From a virus (taxonomy: Duplodnaviria > Caudoviricetes), in IMG/VR virus record IMGVR_UViG_3300023105_000105, positions 1-33,196 of that record: 33,196 bases of DNA; one strand, written 5' to 3'. Shown one piece after another: positions 1 through 22,358 of the stretch. The stretch's first letter is position 1; every line of letters begins with the position of its first letter. The position numbers and the translations under genes were made by a program. Below the pieces are notes generated by a model. That model was given only the letters and a program-made list of their open reading frames with translations, made no database searches and was not told the origin of the DNA.

Positions 1-1
1 A

Positions 2-3000
2 AGAGCAACTACTATTAAGGGCGGTAATACATCAACCGACTCTTCTATCACTATTGCTTCTAACACAACCATCTCACCTACTACATTAACAGTTAGTGCT
101 AACACTACAATTAGTGGTAATGTTATCATTAATACTTCTGGTGCTGAAGTATTTGATATGGGTAATATTTCTCGTATGAGAATGACTGGTGGTTCGGCAG
201 GTCAATTCTTAAGAAAGTCTGGAACAAGTGGTTTAGACTTTGAACCATTAACACTAAGACAAATTTCAGATTTATCATCTAACTCTGCTCACATCATTCT
301 TTCTGGTTCTAATACAACCTTTAGTGATAATGGTGACTCACCTCATTTAAAGTTCGCAGATGTTAATGGTGATACTGTAGAATTGTTTGTTGCTAGTGAT
401 GGAACTGCTGGTGATTCAGATTTACACATTATACTTGCTGACGCAAATGGAGACTCAGCAGTAAACATAACAGATTCTTCTAACACAGTTGTTGCTTCTG
501 TCGATTCAGATGGTAATGCTGATTTTTCAGGAACACTAACTGCTGATGGAACAACTACTCTAAATGGTTCTGTAGTTTTAGGTGATGCTGATTCAGATAC
601 AATAACAGTTAAAGGTAAGTTCGCCAACCAAGCAACTACTGGTGTTGCTTCATTTAACGGAACTACTCATTTCAACGGCACAACCAATATGAATGGAACA
701 CTGAACCTAAACGGAACAGTGAATGTTGGTGATGCTGCTACAGATACAATTACAATCAATTCAACTGCTTCACTAGCAGGTAATACAACAATTGGTGATA
801 GCACTGCTGATACTCTAACAGTAAATTCAAGAGTAGTAAGTCACTTAGTTGCTAATGGTGCTTATGACTTAGGAACTTCATCGTTAGAGTGGAGAAATCT
901 ATATCTTGACGGAACTGCGAAAGTCGACACTTTAACTGTTGATGAAAATGCTACTGTCACTGGTAATCTAACTGTAAACGGTGATACTACACTCGGTGAC
1001 GCAACTGGTGATACAATTACAATTAAGGGTAACTTTGCTAACCAACACACAGAAGGTCTTGCTACTTTTGGTGGTAATGTTGGTGTAGGAACTGCTTCAA
1101 TCACAACTGGTGTTGACCTTGATGTAGCAAACTCTGCTAAAGTAGGTGAAAACTTAACGGTTTCTGGTAATACAAGTATTACTGGTAATCTAACTGTAAC
1201 TGGTTCATTTACTGTTCCAGCAGATGCCGCTTTCGAAGCTGCTGATGCTACATTCATTAATCTCCATGTTTCTGGAAACTCTACTATTGGTGATAGTGGT
1301 TCAGATATTCATACAATTACTGGTGCTACTACAATAGCAGGTGCTATGACACTAACTGGTAATATTGACCACGCAGGTAATCTCGATACAAGTGGTTCTA
1401 TATCAAATGACGGAACGGTCGTAATTGGTGCTAATGGTAAACTACACGCAAACAATACAATTACAAACGGGACAATTAGAGATGTTCATTTAGAAAACTC
1501 TGGTGTGACTGCTGCTTCTTATGGTAGTGCGACTGCTATTCCAGTGATTACAGTAGACGCAAAAGGTTTGATTACTTCAGCAACTACTACAACAGTAGCA
1601 GGTGTAACTGGTATTACATACACATCCTCAAATAATAATATAAGAATTTCAACTGCTGATGGTTCAACATTCGACGATGTTATCGACCCTGCGACAACTT
1701 CAGTTAAAGGTGTTGCTTCATTCGATTCTGGTGATTTTGATGTATCGTCTGGTGCGGTATCATTAAAGAACGCAACTACTGGTGCTGTTCTTGCGGTTAG
1801 TGGAACATCAAACGAAGTCAATGTATCTCGTTCAAATGGAACAGTTACGGTCGGTCTTCCAGATGATGTTACGGTAACTGGTCAACTTAATGTTGGTGAG
1901 AATGTTGTTGTAACTGGTAACCTTACAGTATCAGGAACTACAACTACAGTCAACACAGAAACAGTAAACATTGCTGATAACATTCTTGTTCTTAATAGTA
2001 ATGAAAGTGGAACTCCTTCACAAAACGGTGGTTTTGAAATTGAAAGAGGAACATCAACAAACAAAACTCTATTATGGAATGAAACTTCTGACAAATGGAC
2101 AGTCGGTTCAGAAACTTTCGTTGCTGGAACCTTTGAAGGTAATGTAACTGGTGATGTAACTGGTAATGCTGACACAGCAACTGCTTTAGAAACTGCTCGT
2201 TCAATTGGTATTTCATTAAGTGGTGATATAACTGGTTCTGCTTCAGCAAGTTTTGATGGTACTGGTGATATTACTATTACTGCTACTAATATGGCAGTTC
2301 AAAACAACTCTGTTGATTTAGGAACACACACAACTGGTAACTATGTAAATAATCTTACTGCTGGTGCGTTAATTGATATCAGTGGTTCAGCAGGTGAAGG
2401 TTGGTCACCAACAGTTGCGGTAGACTTATCTGAATTAACAGATATGACAGATGCTGCTGTTAGCACAGACGAATTAGTAATTCTTGACGCAGGTTCTCAA
2501 AAGAGAAAAGCAATCAGTGAAATTACTTTAGGTTTATTTAACACAACTAATCAGATTGCTCTAGGAACAGACACAACTGGTAACTATATGGCAGATGTTG
2601 GTGTCGGAACTGGTTTAGATGTATCACATACTCCAGGAGAGGGTTCTACTGCTACTATCTCACTAGACTTAAGTGAATTAACAACTTCAACAACAAATGG
2701 TGATGGTGATTATTTTGTAGTAGTTGATGCTTCTAATGTATCCAGAAAACTTACTAAAGCAAACATTGCTATTTCAGAATTTAATACTACAAATGGTATT
2801 GCTCTTGGAACAGACACTACTGGTAACTATATGACAAATGTTTCAGCAGGTGCTGGTATTGATGTATCACATACTCCAGGAGAGGGTTCTACTGCTACAG
2901 TTAGTATTGAATCAGACCTTAGAGGTGATGTTGACCAAATTGGTTTAGATACAAACGATTATTATAATATTGATGCTACAATGCATAGATGGTATTTGGA

Positions 3001-3364
3001 TGGTGCTGAAGATATGCGTTTAACCAATAACGGTAATCTTGATGTTGAAGGTAATGTTGTAGCACATTCAACTACAGTTTCTGATAGAAATCTAAAACAC
3101 GATATAGAAAGAATTGATAACGCATTAGAGAAGATTTGTCAATTAGGTGGTTACACATTTACATATAACAAAGACGACCGTAAAGGTGCTGGATTGATAG
3201 CACAAGAGGTTGAAGAAGTCTTACCAAGTGCGGTAACAGAAACAGAAATTCTAAATGTAGAAGGTGTTCATAAAGTATTAGAATACGACCAAGTTCACGG
3301 TTTAATTATCGAAGCAATCAAAGAATTGAAAGCAGAGATTGATGAGTTAAAAGGAAATAAATAG
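2..3364 (+). CDS. Long tail fibre protein with C-terminal intramolecular chaperone (peptidase S74-like); 5' truncated
   Basis: Frame is open from position 2 (RATTIKGGNT...) through the track ATG at 158, so the true start is upstream of the window. G/T/N/D-rich beta repeats (GNLTV.G). C-terminal SDRNLK..I...GLIAQEV...coiled coil is typical of S74 chaperones. Confidence 0.85.
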   Translation, partial: RATTIKGGNTSTDSSITIASNTTISPTTLTVSANTTISGNVIINTSGAEVFDMGNISRMRMTGGSAGQFLRKSGTSGLDFEPLTLRQISDLSSNSAHIILSGSNTTFSDNGDSPHLKFADVNGDTVELFVASDGTAGDSDLHIILADANGDSAVNITDSSNTVVASVDSDGNADFSGTLTADGTTTLNGSVVLGDADSDTITVKGKFANQATTGVASFNGTTHFNGTTNMNGTLNLNGTVNVGDAATDTITINSTASLAGNTTIGDSTADTLTVNSRVVSHLVANGAYDLGTSSLEWRNLYLDGTAKVDTLTVDENATVTGNLTVNGDTTLGDATGDTITIKGNFANQHTEGLATFGGNVGVGTASITTGVDLDVANSAKVGENLTVSGNTSITGNLTVTGSFTVPADAAFEAADATFINLHVSGNSTIGDSGSDIHTITGATTIAGAMTLTGNIDHAGNLDTSGSISNDGTVVIGANGKLHANNTITNGTIRDVHLENSGVTAASYGSATAIPVITVDAKGLITSATTTTVAGVTGITYTSSNNNIRISTADGSTFDDVIDPATTSVKGVASFDSGDFDVSSGAVSLKNATTGAVLAVSGTSNEVNVSRSNGTVTVGLPDDVTVTGQLNVGENVVVTGNLTVSGTTTTVNTETVNIADNILVLNSNESGTPSQNGGFEIERGTSTNKTLLWNETSDKWTVGSETFVAGTFEGNVTGDVTGNADTATALETARSIGISLSGDITGSASASFDGTGDITITATNMAVQNNSVDLGTHTTGNYVNNLTAGALIDISGSAGEGWSPTVAVDLSELTDMTDAAVSTDELVILDAGSQKRKAISEITLGLFNTTNQIALGTDTTGNYMADVGVGTGLDVSHTPGEGSTATISLDLSELTTSTTNGDGDYFVVVDASNVSRKLTKANIAISEFNTTNGIALGTDTTGNYMTNVSAGAGIDVSHTPGEGSTATVSIESDLRGDVDQIGLDTNDYYNIDATMHRWYLDGAEDMRLTNNGNLDVEGNVVAHSTTVSDRNLKHDIERIDNALEKICQLGGYTFTYNKDDRKGAGLIAQEVEEVLPSAVTETEILNVEGVHKVLEYDQVHGLIIEAIKELKAEIDELKGNK
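2540..2910 (+). repeat. Internal 81-aa tandem repeat in the fibre (IALGTDTTGNYM..V..G.G.DVSHTPGEGSTAT)
   Basis: Exact 38-nt match between 2618-2655 and 2861-2898 (243 nt apart). A more diverged third copy starts near 2310. Confidence 0.85.
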
Positions 3365-3367
3365 TAT

Positions 3368-3703
3368 ATGGGTGCTAAAGCAAATATTATAATCGACCAA
3401 GGAACAGATTTTTCTACGACGATTACGGTAACTGATGATGACGGTAATGTAACTGACTTAACTGGTTATACTGGTGAAGGTCAGATAAGAAAACATTACG
3501 AGTCTTCGGATTCTACTGACTTTACACTTTCGTTTGGTTCTCCGAGAAGTGATGGTGAAGTATCATTGTCTTTAACAAGAATTCAAACTGCGAATTTAGA
3601 ATATGGTAGATATGTATATGATGTTGAATTAACAAGTGCTGCGAATACAACATCAAGATTAGTAGAAGGAATAGTCACAGTAACACCACAAGTAACGAGG
3701 TAA
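3368..3703 (+). CDS. Small virion structural protein (beta-sandwich, baseplate/fibre-anchor-like)
   Basis: ANIIIDQGTDF...GRYVYDVEL...RLVEGIVTVTPQVTR pattern, which I recognise from fibre regions of marine T4-like phages. Confidence 0.6.
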   Translation: MGAKANIIIDQGTDFSTTITVTDDDGNVTDLTGYTGEGQIRKHYESSDSTDFTLSFGSPRSDGEVSLSLTRIQTANLEYGRYVYDVELTSAANTTSRLVEGIVTVTPQVTR

Positions 3704-3707
3704 CAAA

Positions 3708-3965
3708 ATGGCAATATCTGGTAAAATAAGTTCTACATCATCAGGAATCAATGCTAAGTTTGGTTCTTCAGCACCGACATTAACAATTAAGTCATCATCG
3801 GCTGCTACCAGTTTAGGAACTTTAAATGATATTGATTTAACAACACCAGAGGCAGGTACTGCTGGTGCTACACTTGTTTATGACGCTACAGCAGGAACTT
3901 ATAAAGCAGAAAAAGTATTTGAATACGACGGAAACGAGGTGACCTTACAAGGTGGGAGTTTCTAA
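3708..3965 (+). CDS. Short fibre-associated protein ending LQGGSF
   Basis: L.DID......GATLVYD....Y fibre motif; packed tightly against its neighbours. Confidence 0.6.
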   Translation: MAISGKISSTSSGINAKFGSSAPTLTIKSSSAATSLGTLNDIDLTTPEAGTAGATLVYDATAGTYKAEKVFEYDGNEVTLQGGSF

Positions 3966-4355
3966 ATGGCAATTATTTCAATCAAGACCTCGCAGAGTAA
4001 TAATGCGCCTACGAGTCTTGCGAATGGTGAATTAGCATATTCATATTCATCAAATAAATTGTTTATTGGTCAGACAGATACTTCTACAGATGCTGTAAGT
4101 GTTGAATATATTGGTGGTAAATTATTAGTAGATAAAGTAGCAAATCTTGAATCTACAATATTAACTCAAACTTCTACACATTCGAATGTAACAATTACGA
4201 ATGTGATGACGATTAGTAGTGCTACTAATAATAGTATTTTGTTTGCTAAGGCAGATGGTGTTATAGATTATCTAACTGGTAGTAGTGGTCAGATATTACA
4301 GATTGCTTCTAACTCTACACCAACTTTTGATGATTTAGACGGAGGCAATTATTAG
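3966..4355 (+). CDS. Short fibre adaptor with Mtd_N-like N-terminus (IKTS...P..L.NGELAY), ending LDGGNY
   Basis: N-terminus is homologous to those of ORFs 4709 and 6139; contains a GSSGQIL fibre motif. Confidence 0.65.
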   Translation: MAIISIKTSQSNNAPTSLANGELAYSYSSNKLFIGQTDTSTDAVSVEYIGGKLLVDKVANLESTILTQTSTHSNVTITNVMTISSATNNSILFAKADGVIDYLTGSSGQILQIASNSTPTFDDLDGGNY

Positions 4356-4364
4356 GAGATAGAT

Positions 4365-4670
4365 GTGGGTGATTATGTAGATGATGCTGTTGGTTATGCT
4401 AAACTTGTTGTTGATTTAAAAACAAGACTTGAACAACAAGAAAAAGAAATAAAAGATTTAAGAGGTGCTCTTCAAATACAAGAAAAAATGAAGATACCTT
4501 TAAGTGTGATAAAGCAAGTAACACAACAAACACAAAAGATAGAAAAATTAGAGAACGATTTATTATATTACAAAAGGTTTGTTCCTAAACAAGTTATTAA
4601 AGATAGGGAAGGAAAGACTGAAGTTGTTAGAAGAGGTGGTTTAAGTTCAAGTTTGAAAAAGAATAAATAA
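4365..4670 (+). CDS. Charged coiled-coil protein, possible fibre assembly chaperone
   Basis: GTG start with AGGAG SD; heptad-rich K/E/Q/L sequence, unlike the surrounding structural ORFs. Function is inferred from position only. Confidence 0.5.
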   Translation: MGDYVDDAVGYAKLVVDLKTRLEQQEKEIKDLRGALQIQEKMKIPLSVIKQVTQQTQKIEKLENDLLYYKRFVPKQVIKDREGKTEVVRRGGLSSSLKKNK

Positions 4671-4708
4671 AGTAAAAGATTAAAAACATTTAACAAAGGA
4701 GTCCTTCA

Positions 4709-5989
4709 ATGGCGTCAGTAATTAAACTAAAAAGAAGTAGCACTCAAGGTTCGGTGCCTACTACTTCTGACCTTGCCACTGGTGAAATCGCAGTAAACTT
4801 ATTTGACCGTAAACTATATGTGTCAAATGGTACTGGCGTCACGGCAATGGGTGGTGAAGACTTTAGACTAACCTCTCAAGACCCAACCTCTGGTGCAGGT
4901 GCTTATCTAAAACTATTAGGTGATACAAGTTCAACTTCAAATACAGTTCTACTAAGAGGTGGCACTGGTATTACAGTTGCTCGTGATGGTAATGGTTCAA
5001 TCTCATTCACCTCAACACAAGGTAGTTCCATTTCAGACTTACAAACTGAAGACGGTAACTTATGGTCAGCAATCACTGCTACTAATACAGCCATTCGTGC
5101 TTTAGTTTCTAGTAATGACACTGATATTAGTAACCTACAAACTGAAGACGGTAACTTATGGAGTGCTATTACAGCAACTAACACCGCTATCCGTTCTATC
5201 ACTACCGCTAATGCTAATGAGATTGGTGATGTATGGTCAGGATTAATAGCAACCAATACTGCTATTCGTTCACTAACAACTGCTAACGCTAATGAGATTG
5301 GTGATTTATGGTCAGGATTAATTGCTACTAATACTGCTATTAGAGCATTAACATCTCAGAATGCTACTAACATTGACCAAAAACTTGGTGCTACTGCTAC
5401 AGTTCAAATTTCTGGTGATGTTGCAGGTTCTGCTTCATTCTCTGGTAACTCAGTAAATGTTGCGGTTACTCAACAAAATAACTCTGTTGATTTAGGAACA
5501 CACACAACTGGTAACTATGTTGCTACAATTGGTGGAACTGCTAACGAGATTACTGTTTCTGGTTCTGGTTCTGAAACTGCTGCTGTTACAATCGGTCTTC
5601 CTGATGATGTATCTATCACTGCTCAATTAAATGTTGGTGAAAACGCAGTAATTTCTGGTAACACATCAGTTGGTGGTAATATGACAGTTTCTGGAGACTT
5701 AACTGTTTCTGGTGCTACAACTTACTTATCAACTTCAACTGTTTATACTGATGATGGTATGTTCAAACTTGCTGCTAATAACGCAGGTGATGCTACTGAT
5801 ACTGGTATCTACGGTATGTATGATGATGGTGGCACAGATGAATTTGCTGGATACTTCAGAGATGCTTCTGATGGTATATTCAAGTTCTACACTGGTCTAC
5901 AAGTTGAACCAACTTCTACAGTAAATGTCGCTGGTGCGGGTTATGCCCTAGCACAAGTTGATGCTGTTATTGACGGTGGTTCATACTAA
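4709..5989 (+). CDS. Tail fibre protein: KRS-type N-terminal domain, coiled-coil repeats, ending IDGGSY
   Basis: MASVIKLKRSS...PTTSDLATGEIAVN; four W..(I/L).ATNTAIR repeats; AAGGAG SD. Confidence 0.8.
   Translation: MASVIKLKRSSTQGSVPTTSDLATGEIAVNLFDRKLYVSNGTGVTAMGGEDFRLTSQDPTSGAGAYLKLLGDTSSTSNTVLLRGGTGITVARDGNGSISFTSTQGSSISDLQTEDGNLWSAITATNTAIRALVSSNDTDISNLQTEDGNLWSAITATNTAIRSITTANANEIGDVWSGLIATNTAIRSLTTANANEIGDLWSGLIATNTAIRALTSQNATNIDQKLGATATVQISGDVAGSASFSGNSVNVAVTQQNNSVDLGTHTTGNYVATIGGTANEITVSGSGSETAAVTIGLPDDVSITAQLNVGENAVISGNTSVGGNMTVSGDLTVSGATTYLSTSTVYTDDGMFKLAANNAGDATDTGIYGMYDDGGTDEFAGYFRDASDGIFKFYTGLQVEPTSTVNVAGAGYALAQVDAVIDGGSY
5030..5350 (+). repeat. Coding tandem repeats of 32 aa and 25 aa (WSAITATNTAIR / WSGLIATNTAIR)
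   Basis: W-to-W spacings are 32, 25 and 25 aa. The same units recur at about 8290-8730 and 9760-10145. Confidence 0.9.
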
Positions 5990-6010
5990 AAATTAATCAA
6001 AAATAAAGAG

Positions 6011-6034
6011 AGGAGACTTCGGTCTCCTTTTTTT
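6011..6034 (+). terminator. Rho-independent terminator with cUUCGg tetraloop
   Basis: AGGAGAC-TTCG-GTCTCCT followed by a T run. Confidence 0.92.
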
Positions 6035-6053
6035 ATGTCTAATGTTTTTTGAT

Positions 6054-6061
6054 TATAAATA
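6054..6061 (+). promoter_or_regulatory. T4-type late promoter (gp55)
   Basis: TATAAATA, intergenic, just after a terminator. Confidence 0.85.
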
Positions 6062-6138
6062 TAGTAAACTGATTACATAATCAGTCAAAAAATTTTAACT
6101 GGTCTATATAGACTTTGAACAATTAGGAAACCATACAT

Positions 6139-6633
6139 ATGGCATCAATCGTAAAGATTAAACGCTCTGCTGTTCAAGGCAAGGCGCCTACTACTTCTGA
6201 TTTGGAGGCAGGGGAAATAGCACTAAACACCAGAGATGGTAAGTTATTCTCTTCTGATGGAACTGCTGTATTTGAAATTGGTGGTAATGTTCACTCTATC
6301 TCTGTAGGAACTGGTGGTTTAGTTATAGCAAATGGTTCTATCACTTTCCCAACTACAGACGGTTCAAGTGGTCAAGTATTATCAACTGATGGTTCAGGAA
6401 ATATAACATTTCAAGATGTAGATGCTGCTGCTGACGCAGGTGGTTTTGAGAATTCATTACTAACATCAGTCCCAAGTGGTGATTTGATGGAAGGTGGTAG
6501 TGGAACAGAAACCTATGTCGGTCAACTAGGTGGTTCTGGACAAGACCCTTATGGTGTGTCTTTAGCAGACCCTAATTATAGTAATATGGATCCAGTAAGA
6601 AGATTTGTAACCGAAGATTTAGGAGCAATTTAA
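6139..6633 (+). CDS. Short fibre adaptor: KRS-type N-terminal domain, C-terminal ETY.GQ...DLG motif
   Basis: MASIVKIKRSAVQGKAPTTSDLEAGEIALN; FPTTDGSSGQVL motif; C-terminus homologous to that of ORF 6635. Confidence 0.75.
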   Translation: MASIVKIKRSAVQGKAPTTSDLEAGEIALNTRDGKLFSSDGTAVFEIGGNVHSISVGTGGLVIANGSITFPTTDGSSGQVLSTDGSGNITFQDVDAAADAGGFENSLLTSVPSGDLMEGGSGTETYVGQLGGSGQDPYGVSLADPNYSNMDPVRRFVTEDLGAI

Positions 6634-6634
6634 G

Positions 6635-9559
6635 ATGCCTACGATTTTACAATTTAGGAGAGGAACGACCTCACAAGCAGACGGTCATACTGGTTCCGAA
6701 GGCGAATTAACGATAGACACTACCCTTGACCAATTAAGAATCCACGATGGTGCTACAGCAGGTGGTTTCAAGGTTGCTCGCCATGTTGATGTTATGGATA
6801 GAATGCAAGTTGCTAACGCACAAGCATTATTCGACACATTACAAGCAAACTTAGTTTCAACAACTAATGTTCAAAACTATCTTCAAATGTCTAATGCTCA
6901 GGCATACTTTGCTAATACAAATACTTGGATATTAAGAACAGATAGTAATTTAGGTTCAACAAATACTGCTCTTAGAACATTAATTGACGACCGTATGCAG
7001 GTTGCTAACGCTCAGGCATTGTTTGATACACTACAAGCAAATCTTGTATCAACAACTAATGTTCAAAACTATATGGCGGTTGCGAATACTCAAGCCCTTG
7101 TTAATGCTCGTTTGGGTGCTACTGCTACAGTTACTCTAACTGGTGATGTAAGTGGTTCTGCTTCATTCAGTTCAAATAGTGTTTCAATCACAACAACAAT
7201 CGCAGACGACAGTCATAATCATACTATTTCAAATGTAGATGGTTTACAAGCAGCATTGAACACTAAGATGGATACATCTAATACTCAGTCGTTATATAAT
7301 ACATTGAAAGCAAATACTGTTCCTTGGACTTCACTAATTTCTACAAATACTGCGATTAGATTATTAGTTTCTGATAGAATGCAGGTTTCTAATACACAGA
7401 ACCTTATAGCAGCCTATTCAGCAAACAATATGTCTGTTGCGAATACACAAGCATTATATAATAATGTTACTGCTAATCTAAATTCATATAAAGCAAATAC
7501 TAATCCAAGAATTACTAACATTCTAACAAGTATTGGTAACACTAACACAGCAATTCGTGCTGTCGCAGCCACTAAGATGTCTGTTGCTAATGTTCAAAGT
7601 TTAATCGCAAACGAAACTGCTAATTCAGATTCTAAGTTTGCTACTTGGACAGCATTAACATCAACTAACACGGCAATTCGTTCTTATGTAGATTCAGAAG
7701 TCGCAGGTTTAGTCGATTCAGCACCAGAGACATTAAACACATTAAATGAATTGGCTGCTGCTTTAGGTGATGACGCAAACTTTGCTACAACACTTACAAC
7801 TAATTTAGGTCAGAAACTAGGTGCTACTGCTAGTGTAACTTTAACTGGTGATGCCACTGGTTCTGGTTCATTTAGTTCTAACTCAGTTTCAATCTCAACA
7901 ACTCTTGCTGATACTGGAACACCAACTGGTATATTTGGTAGTTCAACTAAGATACCAGTAATATCTGTAAATAGTAAAGGTCAGATTACAAATATTAGTA
8001 ATACAACTGTTGCTGGTGTTTCTTCTGTAACATTTACAAGTGGTAATAACAATTTAAGAATTGCTGTTGCTGATGGAACAACACACGATGTTACTATCAG
8101 TGTCGGTGATAAGATGACAGTTGCTAATACTCAAGCACTTCATAGTAATATTACTGCCAACTTAAATTCTTACATAGCAAATACTAATCCAAGAATTACT
8201 AATATATTATCAAGTATTTCTTCAACAAATACTGCTATTAGAAATCTAGTTTCAACTGAAACTACTGATAGACAAAATGCTGATGACTGGATATGGTCAG
8301 GAATTACTGCTACTAATACTGCGATTAGAGGTCTTGTATCAGATGTTGATAGTAGAGCAGATTTACTGAATACCAACTTAACTGCTACTAATACAGCAAT
8401 TAGGTCTTTAATTACTTCTAACGATACTGATATATCAAATCTTCAAACAGAAGATGGTAATCTATGGTCAGCAATCACTGCCACGAATACAGCAATTAGG
8501 TCTTTAGTTACAAGTAACGACACTGATATTAGTAACTTACAAACACTTGTTAATAATAACTTAGCAAATACAAATGCCGAAGTAGATTTACTTAATACAA
8601 ATCTGACTAATACAAACACAGCAATTCGTGCTTTAATTAGTTCTAATGACACAGATATTTCGAATTTACAGACTGAAGATGGTAATCTATGGTCTGCTAT
8701 TACAGCAACCAATACTGCTATTAGAAGTATTACAACAACTAATGCGAATAAGATTGCTCAAGTTGAATCTAATTTACTTTCTACTAATACTTCAATCAGA
8801 AATGCTATCTCAACTGAGGTTTCTAATTTAGTAGATTCTGCTCCTGGAGCATTAGATACATTAAATGAATTAGCAGCAGCACTTGGTGACGATGCTAATT
8901 TCTCAACTACAGTTACTAATAGTATCGCAACTAAGATGTCAGTTGCTAATACAAACACTTTAGTTAATGATAGAATGCAGGTTGCTAATACTAATACTTT
9001 GGTTAACGACCGTATGCAGGTTGCTAATACACAAGCACTACATACAAGTATTACCGCTAACCTTAATAGTTATATTGCTAATACTAACCCAAGAATTGCC
9101 TCATTTAATTCAAGTGGTAGAGTTGCTGCTCATTTAATACCTGCAGCAAATGTTACCTATGACTTAGGAACAACAGAATTAGCATTTAGAGATTTATATC
9201 TGTCTGGTTCAACAATTAACATTGATGGAACATCGATTTCTGCTAACTCAAGTGGTTTTTATTTTACAGACCAAGATAGTAATCAAACAGTTAACATTTC
9301 TTCAGAAAATGGTATTATTGTTAATGGAACGACAATTGCTGATGGTACTGGTGCGTTAGACTCAGATGCTATTGGTCAGGGTTATGTTCAATCAACAGTT
9401 TACTCTATCCCAACAGACTGGGGTGATGGAGAAACTTATCCAGGACAAGCAGGTGCTGGAACAGATGCTTTTGGTATTAATATTGGTGGATTTATTTATG
9501 ACGCCATGGAACCATCAGGAAGATATGCAACCGCTTATGATTTTGGGTCAGTAGCATAA
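6635..9559 (+). CDS. Long coiled-coil tail fibre with Mtd_N-like (QFRRGT) N-terminus
   Basis: MPTILQFRRGT...GELTIDTT; repeats DRMQVANT and ATNTAIR, LVDSAP..L.TLNELAAALGDDANF twice, and DDSHNH. Confidence 0.85.
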   Translation: MPTILQFRRGTTSQADGHTGSEGELTIDTTLDQLRIHDGATAGGFKVARHVDVMDRMQVANAQALFDTLQANLVSTTNVQNYLQMSNAQAYFANTNTWILRTDSNLGSTNTALRTLIDDRMQVANAQALFDTLQANLVSTTNVQNYMAVANTQALVNARLGATATVTLTGDVSGSASFSSNSVSITTTIADDSHNHTISNVDGLQAALNTKMDTSNTQSLYNTLKANTVPWTSLISTNTAIRLLVSDRMQVSNTQNLIAAYSANNMSVANTQALYNNVTANLNSYKANTNPRITNILTSIGNTNTAIRAVAATKMSVANVQSLIANETANSDSKFATWTALTSTNTAIRSYVDSEVAGLVDSAPETLNTLNELAAALGDDANFATTLTTNLGQKLGATASVTLTGDATGSGSFSSNSVSISTTLADTGTPTGIFGSSTKIPVISVNSKGQITNISNTTVAGVSSVTFTSGNNNLRIAVADGTTHDVTISVGDKMTVANTQALHSNITANLNSYIANTNPRITNILSSISSTNTAIRNLVSTETTDRQNADDWIWSGITATNTAIRGLVSDVDSRADLLNTNLTATNTAIRSLITSNDTDISNLQTEDGNLWSAITATNTAIRSLVTSNDTDISNLQTLVNNNLANTNAEVDLLNTNLTNTNTAIRALISSNDTDISNLQTEDGNLWSAITATNTAIRSITTTNANKIAQVESNLLSTNTSIRNAISTEVSNLVDSAPGALDTLNELAAALGDDANFSTTVTNSIATKMSVANTNTLVNDRMQVANTNTLVNDRMQVANTQALHTSITANLNSYIANTNPRIASFNSSGRVAAHLIPAANVTYDLGTTELAFRDLYLSGSTINIDGTSISANSSGFYFTDQDSNQTVNISSENGIIVNGTTIADGTGALDSDAIGQGYVQSTVYSIPTDWGDGETYPGQAGAGTDAFGINIGGFIYDAMEPSGRYATAYDFGSVA

Positions 9560-9562
9560 TAG

Positions 9563-9570
9563 TATAAATA
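9563..9570 (+). promoter_or_regulatory. T4-type late promoter
   Basis: TATAAATA upstream of an AGGAG SD and ATG 9599. Confidence 0.85.
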
Positions 9571-9598
9571 GAATTAGAAAAATTAGGAGTTTTGAAAA

Positions 9599-12052
9599 AT
9601 GCCAACTACAGTTCAATTTAGAAGAGGGACAACCGCCGAGAACGACAACTTTACTGGTGCCGTCGGTGAATTGTCCGTAGATACTACACTAAAACAAGTT
9701 CGTCTCCATGACGGTGTAACCGCAGGTGGACATGTTGTTGGTGATAGTGACCACGCAACATGGACAGAATTACTTGCTACCAATACAGCAATCCGTGCTT
9801 TGACGACAGCAAATGCTACAGAAATAGGTGATGTATGGTCAGGATTAATAGCAACCAATACTGCGATTAGAAGTTTAGTTAGTTCTAACGACACAGATAT
9901 ATCCAATCTACAATCAGAAGATTCTAGTTTATGGTCGGCAATCACTGCCACTAACACAGCCATTCGTTCTATCACAACTGCTAACGCAACTGAGATTGGT
10001 GATGTATGGACTGGTCTTAAATCAACTAACACCGCTATCCGTTCGTTAGTAACTTCTAACGATTCAGACATTTCAAGTCTACAGACTGAGGATTCTAATT
10101 TATGGTCTGCTATTACAGCAACTAACACCGCTATCCGTTCGTTGGTATCTTCAAATGATAATGATATCGATGCTATCAATACTAATTTAGACCAAAAACT
10201 AGGTGCTACTTCTAGTGTGACTTTAACTGGTGCGGTCACTGGTTCTGCTTCATTCAGTGCTAATGCTGTATCAATCACAACAACTGCTACTTCAGACCCT
10301 ACATTAACACTATCTGGTGATGTAAGTGGTTCTGCTACATTTACCAACTTGGGTAATGCTACATTAACAGCAACTGTTGCTGACGATTCGCATAATCACT
10401 CTAGTTCTTCTGGTGCGTTTACGGTCGGTGGTGACCTAACTGTATCTGGTGGTGATATTACTTTATCGGGAACTGGTCGTATTCAAGGTATCGATACTGT
10501 ATCAGCAGGAACTGATGCTGCTAGCAAAACTTATGTAGATACTGCTGTTGCTGGAGTTGTAGATTCAGCACCTGCTGCTCTTGATACTCTAAACGAGTTG
10601 GCTGCAGCTCTTAATGATGATGCTAATGCATTTACAACCCTTAACACAAACATCAGTCAAAAGTTGGGTGCTACTGCTAGTGTAACTTTAACTGGTGATG
10701 TATCAGGTTCTGGTTCATTCAGTTCTAACGCAGTATCCATTTCAGTAACTGTTGCTGATGACTCACATAACCATGTCCTATCAAATATTGATGGTATTAC
10801 TGCTACTGTTGCTGAATTAAACATTATGGATGGTGTAACAGCATCTACTGCTGAGATTAATAAACTAGACGGTGTAACAGCAACTACTACTGAGTTAAAT
10901 TATGTTGATGGTGTTACCTCTGCTATTCAAACTCAAATAGATGAAAAACAAGACACACTCACTGGTGGTGCTACTACAATTGCTTCAAGTGACCTAACAA
11001 CCAACCGTGCATTAATTTCAAATGGTTCAGGAAAAGTTGGGGTATCTGCGGTTACTTCAACTGAATTAGGATACTTAGATGGTGTAACATCAGCAATTCA
11101 AACACAAATTGATAGTAAACAAGCAACTGTCAATGGTGGTGCTTCTACAATTACTTCAAGTAACTTGGGTGCATCAAGAGCATTAATTTCAAATGGTTCT
11201 GGTAAAGTCGCAGTATCTGCCGTAACTTCAACTGAATTAGGATACTTAGATGGTGTTACCTCTGCTATTCAAACTCAGTTAAATGCTAAACAAGCAAGTG
11301 GTTCTTACGCAGTAACTACTAATAACCTTTCCGATTTGAGTTCAGCATCTACTGCTAGAACAAATCTTGGTTTGGGTTCACTTGCTACACTATCGGCAGT
11401 TGGTGCTTCTCAGATTACTGATAACACTGTTGGTGCTGCTGAGTTGAATGTTTCTGGTAACGGTTCAACTTCTCAGTTCTTAAGGTCTGATGGTGATGGT
11501 TCGTTCTCTTGGGCAACTCCAACTGATACTAATACTACTTACACTGGTGGTTCTGGTATAACTTTATCATCTACTACATTTAATCTTGATAGTGATGTCA
11601 GAGGTGATATGTGGACAATGGGTAGAGATACAAACGATTACTTTACTGTTGGCACAACAACTCAGAGTTGGTATCTAGATGGTGCTGAAGATATGAGATT
11701 GACTAACAATGGTAACTTAGATGTTGAAGGTAATGTTGTTGCTCACTCATCAACTGTATCAGATAGAAATCTTAAAGATAACATCGAAAAGATTGAGGGT
11801 GCTTTAGATATGGTTAAAGCATTAAACGGTTATACATTCACATATAAGAAAGATGGTCGTTTAGGTGCTGGACTTATTGCTCAAGAAGTACAAGAAGTCT
11901 TACCAAGAGCAGTTACTGAACATGAAATTCTTAATACAGAAGGTTCACATTTAATTCTTGAATATGACCAAATTCACGGTATACTTGTTGAAGCAATTAA
12001 AGAGCAACAAGCACAGATAGAAGAATTAAAAAATATTATAAATAGTAAATAA
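9599..12052 (+). CDS. Distal tail fibre: QFRRGT N-terminus, C-terminal S74-like chaperone
   Basis: MPTTVQFRRGT; ATNTAIR repeats; DDSHNH twice; TEL.Y.DGVTSAIQTQ repeats; SDRNLKDNI...GLIAQEV. Confidence 0.88.
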   Translation: MPTTVQFRRGTTAENDNFTGAVGELSVDTTLKQVRLHDGVTAGGHVVGDSDHATWTELLATNTAIRALTTANATEIGDVWSGLIATNTAIRSLVSSNDTDISNLQSEDSSLWSAITATNTAIRSITTANATEIGDVWTGLKSTNTAIRSLVTSNDSDISSLQTEDSNLWSAITATNTAIRSLVSSNDNDIDAINTNLDQKLGATSSVTLTGAVTGSASFSANAVSITTTATSDPTLTLSGDVSGSATFTNLGNATLTATVADDSHNHSSSSGAFTVGGDLTVSGGDITLSGTGRIQGIDTVSAGTDAASKTYVDTAVAGVVDSAPAALDTLNELAAALNDDANAFTTLNTNISQKLGATASVTLTGDVSGSGSFSSNAVSISVTVADDSHNHVLSNIDGITATVAELNIMDGVTASTAEINKLDGVTATTTELNYVDGVTSAIQTQIDEKQDTLTGGATTIASSDLTTNRALISNGSGKVGVSAVTSTELGYLDGVTSAIQTQIDSKQATVNGGASTITSSNLGASRALISNGSGKVAVSAVTSTELGYLDGVTSAIQTQLNAKQASGSYAVTTNNLSDLSSASTARTNLGLGSLATLSAVGASQITDNTVGAAELNVSGNGSTSQFLRSDGDGSFSWATPTDTNTTYTGGSGITLSSTTFNLDSDVRGDMWTMGRDTNDYFTVGTTTQSWYLDGAEDMRLTNNGNLDVEGNVVAHSSTVSDRNLKDNIEKIEGALDMVKALNGYTFTYKKDGRLGAGLIAQEVQEVLPRAVTEHEILNTEGSHLILEYDQIHGILVEAIKEQQAQIEELKNIINSK
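12037..12044 (+). promoter_or_regulatory. T4-type late promoter in the last codons of the fibre gene
   Basis: TATAAATA about 30 nt upstream of ATG 12075, which has an AAGGAG SD. Confidence 0.75.
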
Positions 12053-12074: not shown

Positions 12075-12806
12075 ATGCCTACTACACTTACATCAACTGG
12101 TATTCAGTTTCCAGATGCTACAGTTCAGACTACTCTAGCAGAAGGTGGTGGTGGAATTTATCGAACAAGGAGTCTCGATTTTAACTCAACTGGCACTTAC
12201 AGTAAAAACCCAGCAACTACTATGATATCAGCACATGTTAAAGGTGGTGGTGGAAGAATTACTGGTGCTCAAGGACACGGCACACAAGAGTATGGTGGCG
12301 GTGGTGCTGGTGGTGCTTATGCTCTAATATCTGCAGATGATATATCTGCGACTCAACCAGTTACCGTTGGTGGGGCTGGAGGAACTTCAACCTTTTATAA
12401 TTTAGTAGGTGGCGGAACAAATAATAGAGTTGCTGGCACTGCTTCTATAAACGGCACATATATATTTGGAAGTTCAAGTTCTGGAGGATTTGGCGGTCAA
12501 ATGGGTTGGCAAGGTGGTGGTCAAGGAGGTGGAAACTCCCACGCCGGAGGTGGAGGCGGTGGCGGTGGTCAAGCCCCAACTGGCGGCGGTGCGCCAGGTG
12601 GTGAAGGAAGTTATTGGAATCAGGGGTCAATGCCAGAATACTTTATGAGTGGCGGTAATGGTGGTGCGGGTGGACATCAGTTCCATGGAGGCACTGGTGG
12701 TGGTGGAAATCCAGGAAAACCAGGAAACAGTTATCCATATCAAGGTGCACCAGGACAAAATGGCGGAACTGGTAAGGTAAGAATCTGCGAATGGGACGCA
12801 ATGTAA
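12075..12806 (+). CDS. Glycine-rich virion protein, candidate fibre-tip adhesin
   Basis: TGIQFPDATVQTT N-terminus; many GGxGG runs; ends GGTGKVRICEW. Confidence 0.7.
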   Translation: MPTTLTSTGIQFPDATVQTTLAEGGGGIYRTRSLDFNSTGTYSKNPATTMISAHVKGGGGRITGAQGHGTQEYGGGGAGGAYALISADDISATQPVTVGGAGGTSTFYNLVGGGTNNRVAGTASINGTYIFGSSSSGGFGGQMGWQGGGQGGGNSHAGGGGGGGGQAPTGGGAPGGEGSYWNQGSMPEYFMSGGNGGAGGHQFHGGTGGGGNPGKPGNSYPYQGAPGQNGGTGKVRICEWDAM

Positions 12807-12826
12807 TTAAATAAAGGTGTATTAAA

Positions 12827-13288
12827 ATGGCAAAACAAATATCAACAATAGACACTGATGGAGTAATTACCGATATTATAATGGTTGACGATGATTATAG
12901 TTTATCATCAAGTGAAAAAATTAATTATTGCCAAAGTGTAGGTGAAACTTGGTCACAAGATACTCAAGATGAGTTTTTGGAACTTCAAAATGCTATAGCA
13001 AATAGAGAAGCAAGAAACAAATTATTAGCAGAATGTGATTGGACGCAAATGAGTGATTCTAATCTTAGTGCTAATACTCAAGCAGAATGGGCAACATATA
13101 GACAAGAATTAAGAGATATGCCTTCTTCAAACTCATTCGTCACAACATCACCCGAATGGCCTATAAGACCAGATTCAGATTATTCTCGTATTCAGTTTGA
13201 TGCTGATGGACAACCAGTTTTTCATTCGGATGGTATTAGAATTTTAGATGTCGATGGTAATCCATTAGAATATCCTTTAAATATCTAA
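12827..13288 (+). CDS. Phage tail fibre assembly chaperone
   Basis: R..RNKLLAECDWTQMSD...WATYRQELRDMP...WP.RP signature of tail assembly chaperones. Confidence 0.8.
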   Translation: MAKQISTIDTDGVITDIIMVDDDYSLSSSEKINYCQSVGETWSQDTQDEFLELQNAIANREARNKLLAECDWTQMSDSNLSANTQAEWATYRQELRDMPSSNSFVTTSPEWPIRPDSDYSRIQFDADGQPVFHSDGIRILDVDGNPLEYPLNI

Positions 13289-13388: not shown

Positions 13389-14129
13389 ATGGCAACCCCC
13401 ACTACAAGAACAGAGTTTAAAAAGTATTGCCTGAGAGAATTAGGACACCCAGTAGTAGAAATAAATGTAGACGAAGACCAAGTTCAAGACCGTATTGACG
13501 ATGCTCTTGATTACTATCGTGATTTTCACTACGATGGGTCTTTCGAAGATTACTACAAGCATGTAATAACATCTTCAGACATCTCTAACGGTTATATTAC
13601 ACTAGATGAAGACATTCATAGTGTTGTAGATATATTTCCAGTAGGACAAGGTCTTAACTCAAGTAATCTATTCAATCTTAAATATCATATTACTCTTAAT
13701 GAGATATATGACTGGGCTCACGGTCAGTTTGCTAACTATACAATGACCAAAGAAAGAATCGCATTACTTAATGAAATATTTGTAGGTAAACAACTATTCA
13801 GATTTAATCGTCATACAGACAAACTATACATTGATATGGATTGGGATGTAATGACTGCTGGTGAGTATATCGTTATTAAATGTTATAGAACAGCAGACGC
13901 AGATACTTATTCTGATGTATGGTCAGACAGATGGTTAAGAAAATATGCTACTCAATTAATTAAAAGACAATGGGGTACAAACCTTAAGAAGTTCTCTGGT
14001 ATGCAACTTCCTGGAGGTTTAACCTTTAATGGTGAACAAATCTATCAGGAGGCAGAAGAAGAAATTAAAAGGTTAGAGGAAGAAGTCATTAACACATACT
14101 CAATGCCGTCTTATGATATGATAGGATAA
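13389..14129 (+). CDS. gp13: Neck protein gp13
   Basis: YCLRELGHPVVEINVDEDQVQDRIDDAL...KRQWGTNLKKFSGMQLPGG; synteny. Confidence 0.93.
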   Translation: MATPTTRTEFKKYCLRELGHPVVEINVDEDQVQDRIDDALDYYRDFHYDGSFEDYYKHVITSSDISNGYITLDEDIHSVVDIFPVGQGLNSSNLFNLKYHITLNEIYDWAHGQFANYTMTKERIALLNEIFVGKQLFRFNRHTDKLYIDMDWDVMTAGEYIVIKCYRTADADTYSDVWSDRWLRKYATQLIKRQWGTNLKKFSGMQLPGGLTFNGEQIYQEAEEEIKRLEEEVINTYSMPSYDMIG

Positions 14130-14131
14130 TT

Positions 14132-14887
14132 ATGGCAACTAATCTTTATTTCAACAATTACGGTCACCAACAATCTCAATGGTTAATTGAAGACCTTATC
14201 ATAGAATCAATTAAGATTTATGGTATGGAAGTTTATTATATTCCAAGAACCATCGTATCAGAAGACACTATCTTTGGTGAAGATACTATATCATCTTTCG
14301 ACGAGGCATTACCTTTAGAAATGTATATTAAGAATGTTGATGGTTTCGAAGGAGAGGGCGATTTCTTATCTAAGTTTGGTTTAGAGATTAGAGACGAAAT
14401 GACTTTCACTGTTGCTAAAAGAAGATATGAAGAAGAGATAACTTCTCATAGTCATGCTGGAACGGATACAGTATCACATACTCAATCATTAAGACCAGTT
14501 GAAGGTGATTTAATTTACTTCCCACTTAATGGTAAACTGTTTGAAATTAAGTTTGTTGAACACGAAGCAATCTTCTATCAAATGGGTAATTTACAAACTT
14601 ATGATTTGCGTTGTGAATTATTTGAATACAGTCATCAAGCTATTGATACTGGTATTACAGAGATTGATGCTGTTGAAACTGCTTACTCTGGTGATATGGG
14701 ATTCTATGAGTTACTTGATGAAGCAGGTAATACTCTTGTTACAGAAGCAGGTGAAAGTATTATTAATGATGGTTACCGTATTGAAGATACTGACAATTCA
14801 GCAAACAATGAATTGTTCCAAACATCTTCGGTTTCATTTATTGATTTCTCAGAATCTAATCCATTCTCTGAAGGGAGTAGTTGGTAA
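14132..14887 (+). CDS. gp14: Neck protein gp14
   Basis: EDLIIESIKIYG...YYIPR...SKFGLEIRDE...RPVEGDLIYFP; synteny. Confidence 0.93.
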   Translation: MATNLYFNNYGHQQSQWLIEDLIIESIKIYGMEVYYIPRTIVSEDTIFGEDTISSFDEALPLEMYIKNVDGFEGEGDFLSKFGLEIRDEMTFTVAKRRYEEEITSHSHAGTDTVSHTQSLRPVEGDLIYFPLNGKLFEIKFVEHEAIFYQMGNLQTYDLRCELFEYSHQAIDTGITEIDAVETAYSGDMGFYELLDEAGNTLVTEAGESIINDGYRIEDTDNSANNELFQTSSVSFIDFSESNPFSEGSSW

Positions 14888-15732
14888 TGTTTGGTCACGA
14901 TTATTATCACGGAGTTATTCGTAAATATATTGTTATGTTTGGCAATATGTTTAATGATATTAACATAGAAAGATTTAATAACTCAGGAACTTCTGTTCAA
15001 ACAATTCGTGTTCCTATCGCATATGGTCCGAGAGAAAAGTTTCTTGCTCGTCTAAATCAAGATGCTAATTTAAGTAGAGAAGTTGCTATTCAGTTACCTC
15101 GTTTATCTTTTGAGATAACTGATATGACATATGCCCCAGATAGAAGTTTAAACAAACTACAAAGAAATACTGCTTTGGGTGATAATGGTGATAGTTTAAG
15201 AAGTCAATTTACACCAGTCCCATATGATATTAATATATCTTTATATGGTATGTTTGATAACAATGAAGATGCTGTTCAAGTGGTAGAACAAATATTACCA
15301 TTCTTTAGACCAGAGTGGACAAACACAGTTAAACTTATTCCAGAGATGAGTGATTATATTGATGTTCCTACTGTATTAAATGGTATGTCTATTGAAGATA
15401 CATATGAGGCAGACTTTCAATCTCGTAGAGCAATTATATATACTTTTAACTTTACTGTTAAAGGTTTGATATACGGTCCAGTTTCTAAGAAGGGTGTTAT
15501 TAAGAGAACATATATTGATATCACTGCTCAAGATTCTAATACAGCAATTGGCACAGAAGCAGGTCCACATAGAAGAACAAGAATTCAGCCAGGAATGTAT
15601 GCTAATGGTACACCAACTGCGAATAGTAGTGCTTCTATATCGATTTCTAGTATCAATGCGAATAACAATTGGACATACGCTTTTGACGACTATGATTATT
15701 TTGATGGGGTAAATAGACATAACCACGATTGA
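14887..15732 (+). CDS. gp15: Tail sheath stabiliser/terminator gp15
   Basis: FGNMFNDI...VPIAYGPREKFLARL...LPRLSFE...EQILPFFRP. Start placed at ATG 14887 (TAATG overlap with gp14). Confidence 0.93.
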   Translation: MFGHDYYHGVIRKYIVMFGNMFNDINIERFNNSGTSVQTIRVPIAYGPREKFLARLNQDANLSREVAIQLPRLSFEITDMTYAPDRSLNKLQRNTALGDNGDSLRSQFTPVPYDINISLYGMFDNNEDAVQVVEQILPFFRPEWTNTVKLIPEMSDYIDVPTVLNGMSIEDTYEADFQSRRAIIYTFNFTVKGLIYGPVSKKGVIKRTYIDITAQDSNTAIGTEAGPHRRTRIQPGMYANGTPTANSSASISISSINANNNWTYAFDDYDYFDGVNRHNHD

Positions 15733-15757
15733 CTTTAATACCCCTTTATGGTATAAT
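15729..15757 (+). promoter_or_regulatory. Sigma70-type promoter upstream of gp16
   Basis: TTGACT-17 bp-TATAAT with TGG extended -10; ATG follows after 5 nt. Confidence 0.75.
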
Positions 15758-15762
15758 ATAAT

Positions 15763-16188
15763 ATGGCAACACAATTTGAAAAAAATCTAAATGAAATATT
15801 CGATATTGATGGTGAGATAGTTTCAGAAGAAACAAAAGACTTACCTGCGGTTCAGAAAGAAACCAAAGAAGAAGATATCGAAAACGATTACGACTTTGCT
15901 CGTAAGAATCTCTATGATGTAATTGGTAAGGGAACAGATGCCCTTGACCATCTCATCGAATTAGCAAAAGTATCAGAACACCCAAGAGCATTTGAGGTGG
16001 TTGCTACTTTATCAAAAACATTAATGGATGCTAACAAAGACCTATTGAATATTCAAAAGAAAGTTAAAGACTTACAAAAAGAAGAAGAGGCAAAGGGTGG
16101 TGATGTTAAGAATGTAACTAATGCTTTGTTTGTCGGTTCGACAGCAGAGATGTTGAAAATGTTAAAAGATGAAAAAACTGAAGAATAG
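15763..16188 (+). CDS. gp16: Terminase small subunit gp16
   Basis: DYDFARKNL...SEHPRAFEV...NALFVGSTAEMLKML. Confidence 0.92.
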   Translation: MATQFEKNLNEIFDIDGEIVSEETKDLPAVQKETKEEDIENDYDFARKNLYDVIGKGTDALDHLIELAKVSEHPRAFEVVATLSKTLMDANKDLLNIQKKVKDLQKEEEAKGGDVKNVTNALFVGSTAEMLKMLKDEKTEE

Positions 16189-21812: not shown

Positions 21813-22358
21813 ATGGCATTTAATGTAAATCAATTCTCAGGTGCTCTTAAAGACGGTGGTGCTAGAAACTCACTGTTCGAAGTAAATATTACAAACCCAG
21901 TAAATGGTGTTGCTGATATCAATATTCCTTTTATGGTTAAAGGTGCTCAGATTCCAGCAGCTTCATTGGGTACTATTGAAGTTCCTTACTTCGGTCGTCA
22001 AATTAAAGTAGCAGGTAACAGAACATATGCTGAATGGTCACCTACGATTATCAATGATGAAGGTTTTGATATTCGTAACGCCATGGAGCAATGGTCTCAT
22101 GCTATTAATTCACCACAGAATAATTTGAGGACTGGTGGTTCAGCCCCTAGTCTATATAAGAGTAACGCACAAGTAACACAGTTTAGTAAGACTGGTGAAA
22201 TTTTAAGAGTATATAACTTTGTCGGTATATTCCCTACTGAAGTATCTACAATCGACCTAGCATGGGAGACTGAAGGTATTCAAGAATACACTGTAACATT
22301 CCAATACGATTATTGGGAAGTTGCTGGTGGTTCTACTGGTAACGCCGGCGGTATTTAA
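21813..22358 (+). CDS. gp19: Tail tube protein gp19
   Basis: GGARNSLFEV...GRQIKVAGNRT...W...FPTEVSTIDLAW...VTFQYDYW. Confidence 0.95.
   Translation: MAFNVNQFSGALKDGGARNSLFEVNITNPVNGVADINIPFMVKGAQIPAASLGTIEVPYFGRQIKVAGNRTYAEWSPTIINDEGFDIRNAMEQWSHAINSPQNNLRTGGSAPSLYKSNAQVTQFSKTGEILRVYNFVGIFPTEVSTIDLAWETEGIQEYTVTFQYDYWEVAGGSTGNAGGI

Follow-up and report, generated by a model that had tools for sequence, protein, structure and literature searches.

The long tail fibre of phage T4 is described as a series of trimers in gene order, with the C-terminus of gp36 bound to the N-terminus of gp37 (PMC3004832, PMC9603124). In Bordetella phage BPP-1, Mtd is reported at the fibre ends, two Mtd trimers to a fibre (PMC2408619). 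Separate trimers of the neck fibre proteins gp82, gp81 and gp80 of the Anabaena myophage A-1(L) are said to assemble by themselves, head to tail, in a long chain that bears a terminal piece (PMC10966104). In the account given of Klebsiella anchor-branch receptor-binding proteins (RBPs), trimeric RBPs dock on one another through a short conserved peptide and are exchanged as modules (PMC6872550), while for T5 the p132 collar is described as anchoring the pb1 side fibres, N-terminal residues of pb1 being proposed to intertwine with it (10.1101/2022.09.20.507954). The subject here is a fibre gene cluster in a 33,196-nucleotide stretch of phage DNA (Duplodnaviria; Caudoviricetes; positions 1 to 33,196 of IMG/VR record IMGVR_UViG_3300023105_000105; below, the window). 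Six of its open reading frames (ORFs), ORF3708, ORF3966, ORF4709, ORF6139, ORF6635 and ORF9599, probably encode the pieces of a jointed fibre, the C-terminal peptide (plug) of one piece docking on the N-terminal domain (socket) of the next.

Plugs and sockets

Five of these ORFs end in a plug of the form D/Q-x-G-x-hydrophobic and five start with a socket of ~48 residues. The first-pass annotation had read them as a docking code of two classes in gene order, and every ORF, coordinate and motif on which it drew is present: ORF3708 ends LQGGSF; ORF3966 starts IKTSQS..P..LANGE and ends LDGGNY; ORF4709 starts IKLKRS and ends IDGGSY; ORF6139 starts IKRS and ends with ETYVGQ..DPYGV..MDP..DLGAI; ORF6635 starts QFRRGT and ends with ETYPGQ..DAFGI..MEP..DFGSVA; ORF9599 starts QFRRGT. 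The motifs, their terminal positions and class-matched gene order are observed across many phages. It is on balance probable that addition of a D-x-G-x-hydrophobic strand to Mtd_N-type trimers links trimers from separate genes, head to tail, in a single jointed fibre. Each piece would trimerise, and its three plugs would engage the socket trimer of the next piece, each adding as a parallel β-strand to that N-terminal Mtd_N-type trimer. Type-I plugs (D-G/A-G-x-Y/F or D-F-G-x-Y/F) would prefer proline-loop sockets (type I, with KRS heads), and type-II plugs (D-L-G-x-x or D-F-G-x-aliphatic) Mtd-type sockets with a QN..FTG segment (type II, with QFRRG heads).

The tail of ORF6139 and the head of ORF6635, the sole pair modelled, were assembled as a complex of three heads and three tails. 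It scores 0.82 against 0.01 for the best control, runs agreeing in at least 78% of contacts with a partner pLDDT of at least 41; 116 of 157 solved complexes came up to the mark set for this score, as did 2 of 215 mismatched pairs, in a benchmark only roughly valid for the 3+3 job type. Confident contacts connect tail residues 52-60 (FVTEDLGAI) with head residues 1-10, 14-15, 18, 21 and 26, and the specific interface proposed sets the last nine residues of one piece against the first ten of the next. Since contact indices rise together, the strand would lie parallel and the N-to-C direction of the fibre would be kept. The conserved Arg8 and Arg9 of the head adjoin the last plug residues in the model and may hold the terminal carboxylate of the plug. 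Mtd structures have been solved alone and with pertactin; because no solved chain resembling the tail was found in the PDB, memory of a like complex is an unlikely (though possible) source of the model. Head-to-tail docking, as put forward at first pass, is borne out in this model. That the C-terminal plug docks on the N-terminal trimer of the next piece is very likely; that binding is also selective for class is likely, if less assured.

Of 748 profile matches to the socket, 746 are N-terminal. The only real internal socket is a KRS-type one near residue 2530 of gp127 of Caulobacter phage C2 (L005 402-8675), the second internal match being a start-calling artefact. In the window, the socket profiles (which include these heads) match only the five fibre heads, and a loose plug pattern matches 6 of 37 plus-strand ORFs, namely the five fibre ORFs and the tail tube at 21813, a false positive. 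At E <= 0.001 the profile of type-II tails matches 514 representative proteins. The best 150 of these are 52-1,401 residues long, and 133 have the plug in their final 12 residues. An estimated ~4,800 IMG/VR stretches contain IDGGT[YF]-stop in its exact form.

The two kinds of head align with each other (hhalign probability 84.6%, E 7e-6), and 16 of 50 aligned KRS heads match Mtd_N weakly (E up to 0.1); the whole ORF3966, ORF4709 and ORF6139 proteins have no PF18454 match above the Pfam gathering cut-off. The KRS head corresponds to the start of T4-type gp37, as judged from the starts of phrog_19966 and phrog_1699, tblastn to annotated gp37 (E ~5e-3 to 2e-4) and alignment. In IME281 and KP15, gp36 has the endings DFGYY and DFGSY before a KRS-headed gp37, and Bbp9 of BPP-1 (L393 3459-4985), whose gene adjoins mtd on its 5' side, ends DLGGIA, a predicted Mtd attachment peptide. 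Intermediate heads, with RRG and a proline loop, follow DGGTF tails, and many heads in the prokaryote genome contigs are of this kind. On sequence comparison the two socket classes appear to be distant homologues (Mtd_N and the T4 gp37 N-terminus). Because the heads align and the ends of gp36 and Bbp9 match, DGGSY, DFGYY, DLGAI and DFGSVA can be thought of as forms of one D-x-G-x-hydrophobic motif, and one homologous joint with variants takes the place of the two unrelated codes first suggested. A rule that DFG always pairs with QFRRGT was rejected, and with it the original wording in which D(L/F)G tails go to QFRRGT sockets: gp36 DFGYY/DFGSY and IDFGT[YF] precede KRS heads, so that the last residue of the motif matters too.

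Searches for known structure gave little. A model of the KRS head (pLDDT 88) retrieved only weak rows in a fold search, the trimerisation domains of collagen XVIII and XV (Z 4.8 and 4.0) and streptococcal phage hyaluronidase; Mtd was not among them, which excludes nothing. No relevant chain came out of the PDB when it was searched by sequence with ORF3368, ORF6139, gp36, gp37-N and profiles of KRS heads and type-II tails, an NCBIfam search found no match, and a single-sequence AlphaFold model of ORF6139 was unusable (pLDDT 40). The resemblance to collagen domains would allow a pure trimerisation role, with each fibre protein anchored on collar or baseplate by its own N-terminal domain and the C-terminal motifs serving as trimerisation caps. 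Such independent anchoring is nonetheless highly improbable, being at odds with the docking model and with the established serial position of gp37 and Mtd, and leaving unexplained both the plug-less, chaperone-ended terminal fibres and the correlation between tail class and next head to which we now turn.

Tail class and the head that follows

Scans were run tail-first, and the next gene was then scored by socket profile. A scan for IDGGT[YF]-stop gave at least 126 loci with 125 distinct tails, 119 of them with a next gene; among the matches listed, this gene has a KRS head in 70, a QFRRG head in 4 and neither in 45 (7 of the last have a KRS head in the second gene, 12 do not, and in 26 the DNA ended). 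The corresponding scan for DAFG..DLG-stop gave at least 124 loci with 70 in-frame terminal tails (out-of-frame and non-terminal ones dropped), and the next gene, available for 68, has a QFRRG head in 52, a KRS head in none and neither in 16, again among the matches listed. A replicate in prokaryote genome contigs, with 88 of 117 rows scorable, counted 54 KRS-like heads, 4 QFRRG heads and 30 of neither kind. In a minimal pair differing at the last plug residue (62 of 76 rows scorable), IDFGT[YF] is followed by KRS in 12, QFRRG in 1 and neither in 7, and IDFGTL by KRS in 0, QFRRG in 36 and neither in 6.

Taken over 3,393 adjacent gene pairs, the second gene has a socket in 523. Type-I plugs stand before proline-loop and helix-type sockets in the ratio 191:16 and type-II plugs in the ratio 1:127, by a rule that was fitted after the data had been seen and with profiles partly trained on these loci. 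After genes with a tail of no class a socket comes next in 49 of 1,268 pairs. There are also 102 sockets with no plug in the gene directly 5', where an ORF4365-like spacer often lies (ORF4365 is a small charged protein between ORF3966 and ORF4709). The best control for relatedness among these counts is a swap inside one family: among 21 orthologues of ORF6139, whose tails were classed by eye, an RRG socket comes next in 6 of 7 with a type-II tail and in 0 of 14 with other tails (in the seventh, it comes after one further type-II gene). ORF6139 had been called a class-switch adaptor, and this fits it well, orthologues that change their tail changing the next head too.

The class split is seen in T4-like myophages, T7-like podophages, BPP-1 and prophages of genome contigs, and also across ORF4365 and a terminator. 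Cultured phages with type-I junctions include Vibrio podophage 1.293.O and Limnohabitans phage DC31; type-II junctions are found in HTVC008M, Minorna, AH02, S-TIP37 and Vibrio 1.021.A (seven such records were hand-picked from 67 matches). The pelagiphage HTVC008M shares the layout of the present cluster in its gp61-gp64. In the T7-like podophage Minorna (L395 2749-4301) three small fibre genes in a row are joined by DLG tails and QL[KR]RG heads.

Several observations weigh against selective joints and against a single chain in gene order. The counts are not independent: clustered at 60% identity, heads after IDGGT[YF] reduce to 35 KRS, 3 QFRRG and 41 of neither kind, and those after DAFG..DLG to 0, 4 and 9, the QFRRG heads thus falling to 4 clusters; one or two lineages predominate in either arm of the minimal pair. 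No socket comes next after 45 of 119 IDGGT[YF] tails and 16 of 68 DAFG..DLG tails among the matches listed. Sixteen DGGxY tails precede QFRRG heads identical in contact positions to 97 heads that follow DLG tails, and no socket change that would explain them was found when sought at the contact positions. W[ST]EAQA tails precede QFRRG in 6 of 7 cases. The QFRKGT head of S-SSM7 comes after a plug-less gene, one locus (L055) has two terminal QxRRG fibres after a single tail, and another (L052) has two successive KRS heads without an intervening plug. As many as 128 socket-I proteins bear a plug of their own class. Finally, the DAFG..MDP stretch of the tail lies outside the confident interface of the docking model.

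The expectation that tail class predicts the class of the next head accordingly stands in part: class-matched pairs recur across unrelated phages, and the rule leaks, notably in the 16 DGGxY-before-QFRRG pairs. All but two of these (14 of 16) belong to one recurring layout, in which a QFRRG protein of 73-85 residues ending DGGTY is followed by a long QFRRG protein; the trio mostly starts (in eleven loci) with a KRS protein of ~105 residues with a type-II tail. Either the socket takes both plugs, or the small QFRRG protein could be a reverse adaptor, leading to a loop, a branch or an alternating copolymer.

A promiscuous joint, in which the pairing reflects co-inheritance of a gene end and the next start as one recombination cassette and the classes merely mark lineages, would account for these 16 pairs and for the RRG and proline-loop intermediates after DGGTF, and it is in keeping with the homology of the two sockets and the low diversity of class-II heads. 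It is an improbable reading all the same: the split holds in phages as different as those named above, type-II plugs stand before a proline-loop socket once as against 127 times before the helix type, and the pairing persists across the inserted ORF4365 and a terminator.

Nor are two letters enough. PF[YF]..D.I tails precede NTxVIP[LV]KAIY heads (5 of 5) and β-sandwich tails precede KSKxRxLA heads (3 of 4), and by these sequence pairings the code appears to have more than two letters. Because ORF3966, ORF4709 and ORF6635 each carry a plug of their own socket class, two letters cannot order six pieces, and the sufficiency of such a code for the six-step order, as initially supposed, has to be given up. 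Order within a class would need finer sub-specificity, for example the GELAY socket subtype at the first joint. A small socket-less anchor precedes 46 of 53 GE-x-A-Y sockets and 37 of 150 other sockets, which may be read as one sign of finer matching within a class.

Two further features of tails may bear on architecture. Of 363 type-II tails, 158 have at least two D[LFMYW]G motifs among their final 60 residues (five loci serve as examples of tandem D-hydrophobic-G), and the tandem motifs may be extra docking sites. Proteins of 67-101 residues with an MSNY or MADY start and an IDGGTY end, followed by a gene with no socket, were seen in nine loci and may be stub anchors with a partner encoded elsewhere.

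The joints might also be real and class-selective and the product nevertheless a mixed or branched set, in which a plug would take any socket of its own class and pieces are skipped, ORF3966, ORF4709 and ORF6635 products are repeated like beads, or tandem motifs hold more than one socket trimer per tip. The commonness of class-I self-matching proteins, the tandem tails and the alternative terminal fibres of L055 lend this some weight, as do the paired Mtd trimers reported for BPP-1 (PMC2408619), the one trimer described as repeated ~14 times in the A-1(L) neck fibre (PMC10966104), and separate late promoters before ORF6139, ORF9599 and the gene at 12075, which would permit unequal amounts. On the other hand, 20 of 22 distinct relatives have the same succession of genes (LtfC-like, anchor, socket, coiled coil, socket, socket), the first joint has a socket subtype of its own, class-II self-matching proteins are rare (3 of 132), and the complex model engages only the last motif. 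A mixed or branched product is unlikely, though it is the most probable of the alternatives.

The architecture most likely to result is mainly one linear chain that follows gene order; it is not established and is only slightly better than an even proposition. ORF3708 would hook on the LtfC-like collar, as the T5 pb1 protein is proposed to do on p132 (10.1101/2022.09.20.507954), and the path would run from there through ORF3966 and ORF4709 to ORF6139 (switch), ORF6635 (optional extender) and ORF9599, whose tip would mature through S74 cleavage. ORF6635 is missing in two relatives (L034 and L045), where the adaptor directly precedes the terminal QFRRG fibre, as expected for an extender with matching ends. 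The assignment of ORF9599 as terminal piece holds, since it ends in Peptidase_S74 and has no plug. The six chains sum to ~2,500 residues, which resembles the 2,536 residues and ~145 nm given for T4 gp34, gp36 and gp37 together (PMC9603124); the single fibre that had been called very long would thus be long, at roughly 150-250 nm by analogy with T4, and not exceptional.

The fibre locus and its parts

The fibre cluster (Table 1) lies immediately 5' of gp13. Its setting is that of a T4-like phage, with gp13, gp14, gp15 and the small terminase at 13389-16188 on its 3' side (Pfam, PHROGs), and beyond the terminase the usual tail and head module by inspection of the window ORFs. Two independent metagenome contigs carry relatives with 100% identity to ORF6139 and ORF3966.

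Table 1. Coordinates of the fibre cluster and adjoining features in the window
Feature	Position	Strand	Remarks
ORF3368, LtfC/p132-like Ig-fold protein	3368..3703	+	phrog_3304, E 1.4e-25; 5' of the anchor gene in 21 of 22 relatives
ORF3708, 85-residue anchor piece, socket-less	3708..3965	+	type-I plug LQGGSF at 3945-3962
ORF3966, 129 residues	3966..4355	+	type-I socket (KRS, GELAY subtype) ~3966-4115; type-I plug LDGGNY 4335-4352
ORF4365, 101-residue charged coiled-coil protein	4365..4670	+	neither plug nor socket; position conserved in relatives
ORF4709, 426-residue stalk piece	4709..5989	+	type-I socket ~4709-4852; type-I plug IDGGSY 5969-5986; head aligns with start of gp37-type PHROGs (phrog_19966, E 2.7e-6)
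C(UUCG)G hairpin terminator, between ORF4709 and ORF6139	6011-6034	+	consensus match only
T4 late promoter TATAAATA, between ORF4709 and ORF6139	6054-6061	+	consensus match only
ORF6139, 164-residue class-switch adaptor	6139..6633	+	type-I socket ~6139-6282; extended type-II tail 6508-6630
Predicted docking strand FVTEDLGAI of ORF6139	6604-6630	+	complex model
ORF6635, 974-residue optional extender	6635..9559	+	Mtd_N (type-II) socket ~6635-6778 (PF18454, 36.5 bits; gathering cut-off 26.3); extended type-II tail 9431-9556
T4 late promoter TATAAATA, 5' of ORF9599	9563..9570	+	consensus match only
ORF9599, 817-residue terminal piece, plug-less	9599..12052	+	Mtd_N socket ~9599-9742 (PF18454, 43.6 bits, cut-off 26.3; Mtd structure 1YU0, E 2.5e-9); Peptidase_S74 chaperone 11759-11914 (residues 721-772, E 3e-16)
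Glycine-rich protein and Phage_tail_APC protein	12075..13288	+	12075-12806 and 12827-13288 (PF16778, E 2.8e-17)

The ORF3368 product is likely a collar or adaptor that anchors the fibre; against PF23926 it reaches 16.5 bits, below the cut-off of 27, and it has no PDB sequence match. No family in Pfam, PHROGs, Atlas or NCBIfam matches ORF4365 above cut-off. It is possibly a folding chaperone, a gp57A-like role being a guess; short ORFs resembling it come after DGGT[YF] genes in other phages too. The glycine-rich and Phage_tail_APC proteins might act as an adhesin at the tip and as its chaperone. The glycine-rich gene has a late-promoter site 5' of it, at 12037, and in HTVC008M, too, the terminal fibre is followed by a glycine-rich gene. 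The stalk repeat [ST]N[TS][AS][IL]R is common to ORF4709 (4 copies), ORF6635 (11) and ORF9599 (5).

The terminator and late promoters divide the fibre cluster. In the window as a whole there are 11 T4 late-promoter consensus sites (6054, 9563, 12037, 13350, 16680, 19798, 21786, 22388, 23941, 25481 and 28088) and two C(UUCG)G hairpin terminators, near 6017 and 28056; a scan for σ70 promoters gave fewer sites than in shuffled sequence. At the 5' edge of the window, ORF158 (1-3364) is the cut end of a 1,182-residue fibre that starts upstream, with S74 at its end and neither plug nor socket (also seen at L021 5851-9399); its product is probably a separate fibre.

Comparison with described fibres

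The fibre joint, with its strong matching of classes in gene order and a single good docking model, is real and widespread, and it likely links fibre pieces end to end, T4 and BPP-1 included. The T4 gp36-gp37 and BPP-1 fibre-Mtd joints are long known as positions in the virion, and no solved structure or named motif was found for either. The first-pass annotation knew of no description of such a code. This survives for the motif and its selectivity, of which none was found in the literature searched (most subscription papers and supplements were outside coverage), and the accessible text of two fibre atlases does not mention the joint (PMC12143355, 10.64898/2026.05.12.724579); it does not extend to serial fibres in gene order, which are known from T4.

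If the joint is as proposed, the architecture of multi-gene fibres would be readable from genome sequence, the same connection explaining T4 gp36-gp37 and BPP-1 Bbp9-Mtd as well as the insertion, loss and swapping of fibre segments as whole genes. Since the plug motif is common, many genes now called hypothetical could be assigned their place among the pieces of a fibre; as protein connectors, orthogonal trimeric peptide-domain pairs would be of use too. The wider proposal, which stands at about even, is that a single connector, ancient and reusable, is common to tailed phages: a D-x-G-x-hydrophobic strand at the C-terminus, docked on an Mtd_N/gp37-N trimer. It would have split into mutually selective classes that two residues tell apart, it would be used in forward and reverse adaptors, optional extenders, loops and branches, and it would cover gp36-gp37 and Bbp9-Mtd.

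As in T4 gp36-gp37, the distal piece here starts like gp37 and the proximal piece ends in a motif of the same class; unlike T4, which uses this type of joint once, the present locus uses it five times. The bodies also differ from those of the T4 long tail fibre, ORF3708 to ORF6635 matching no gp34, gp35 or gp36 family in PHROGs or Pfam, and the fibre locus sits before gp13. The BPP-1 Bbp9-Mtd joint is paralleled by an upstream fibre that ends D-L-G-x-aliphatic before an Mtd_N gene (DLGAI in ORF6139, DLGGIA in Bbp9). In contrast to BPP-1, with one joint and a diversified lectin tip, the Mtd_N heads here start long stalks, one with a plug and one ending in S74; Pfam finds no lectin domain in ORF6635 or ORF9599, and the flanking genes are fibre and neck genes with no diversity-generating retroelement (DGR) cassette among them. 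By its published description, the A-1(L) neck fibre has ~14 repeats of one globular bead connected through N-terminal β-hairpins, unlike the joints here. In the anchor-branch RBPs, as described, an N-terminal peptide of the distal protein sits on a domain that belongs to the proximal protein; the arrangement here would be the reverse, a proximal C-terminal peptide on the first domain of the distal piece, and the fibre proteins have no Pfam match to a T4gp10-like branching domain. Finally, the locus resembles that of T5 in that a gene for an Ig-fold LtfC-like protein adjoins a fibre gene, and differs from it in that pb1, as described for T5, is a single polypeptide.

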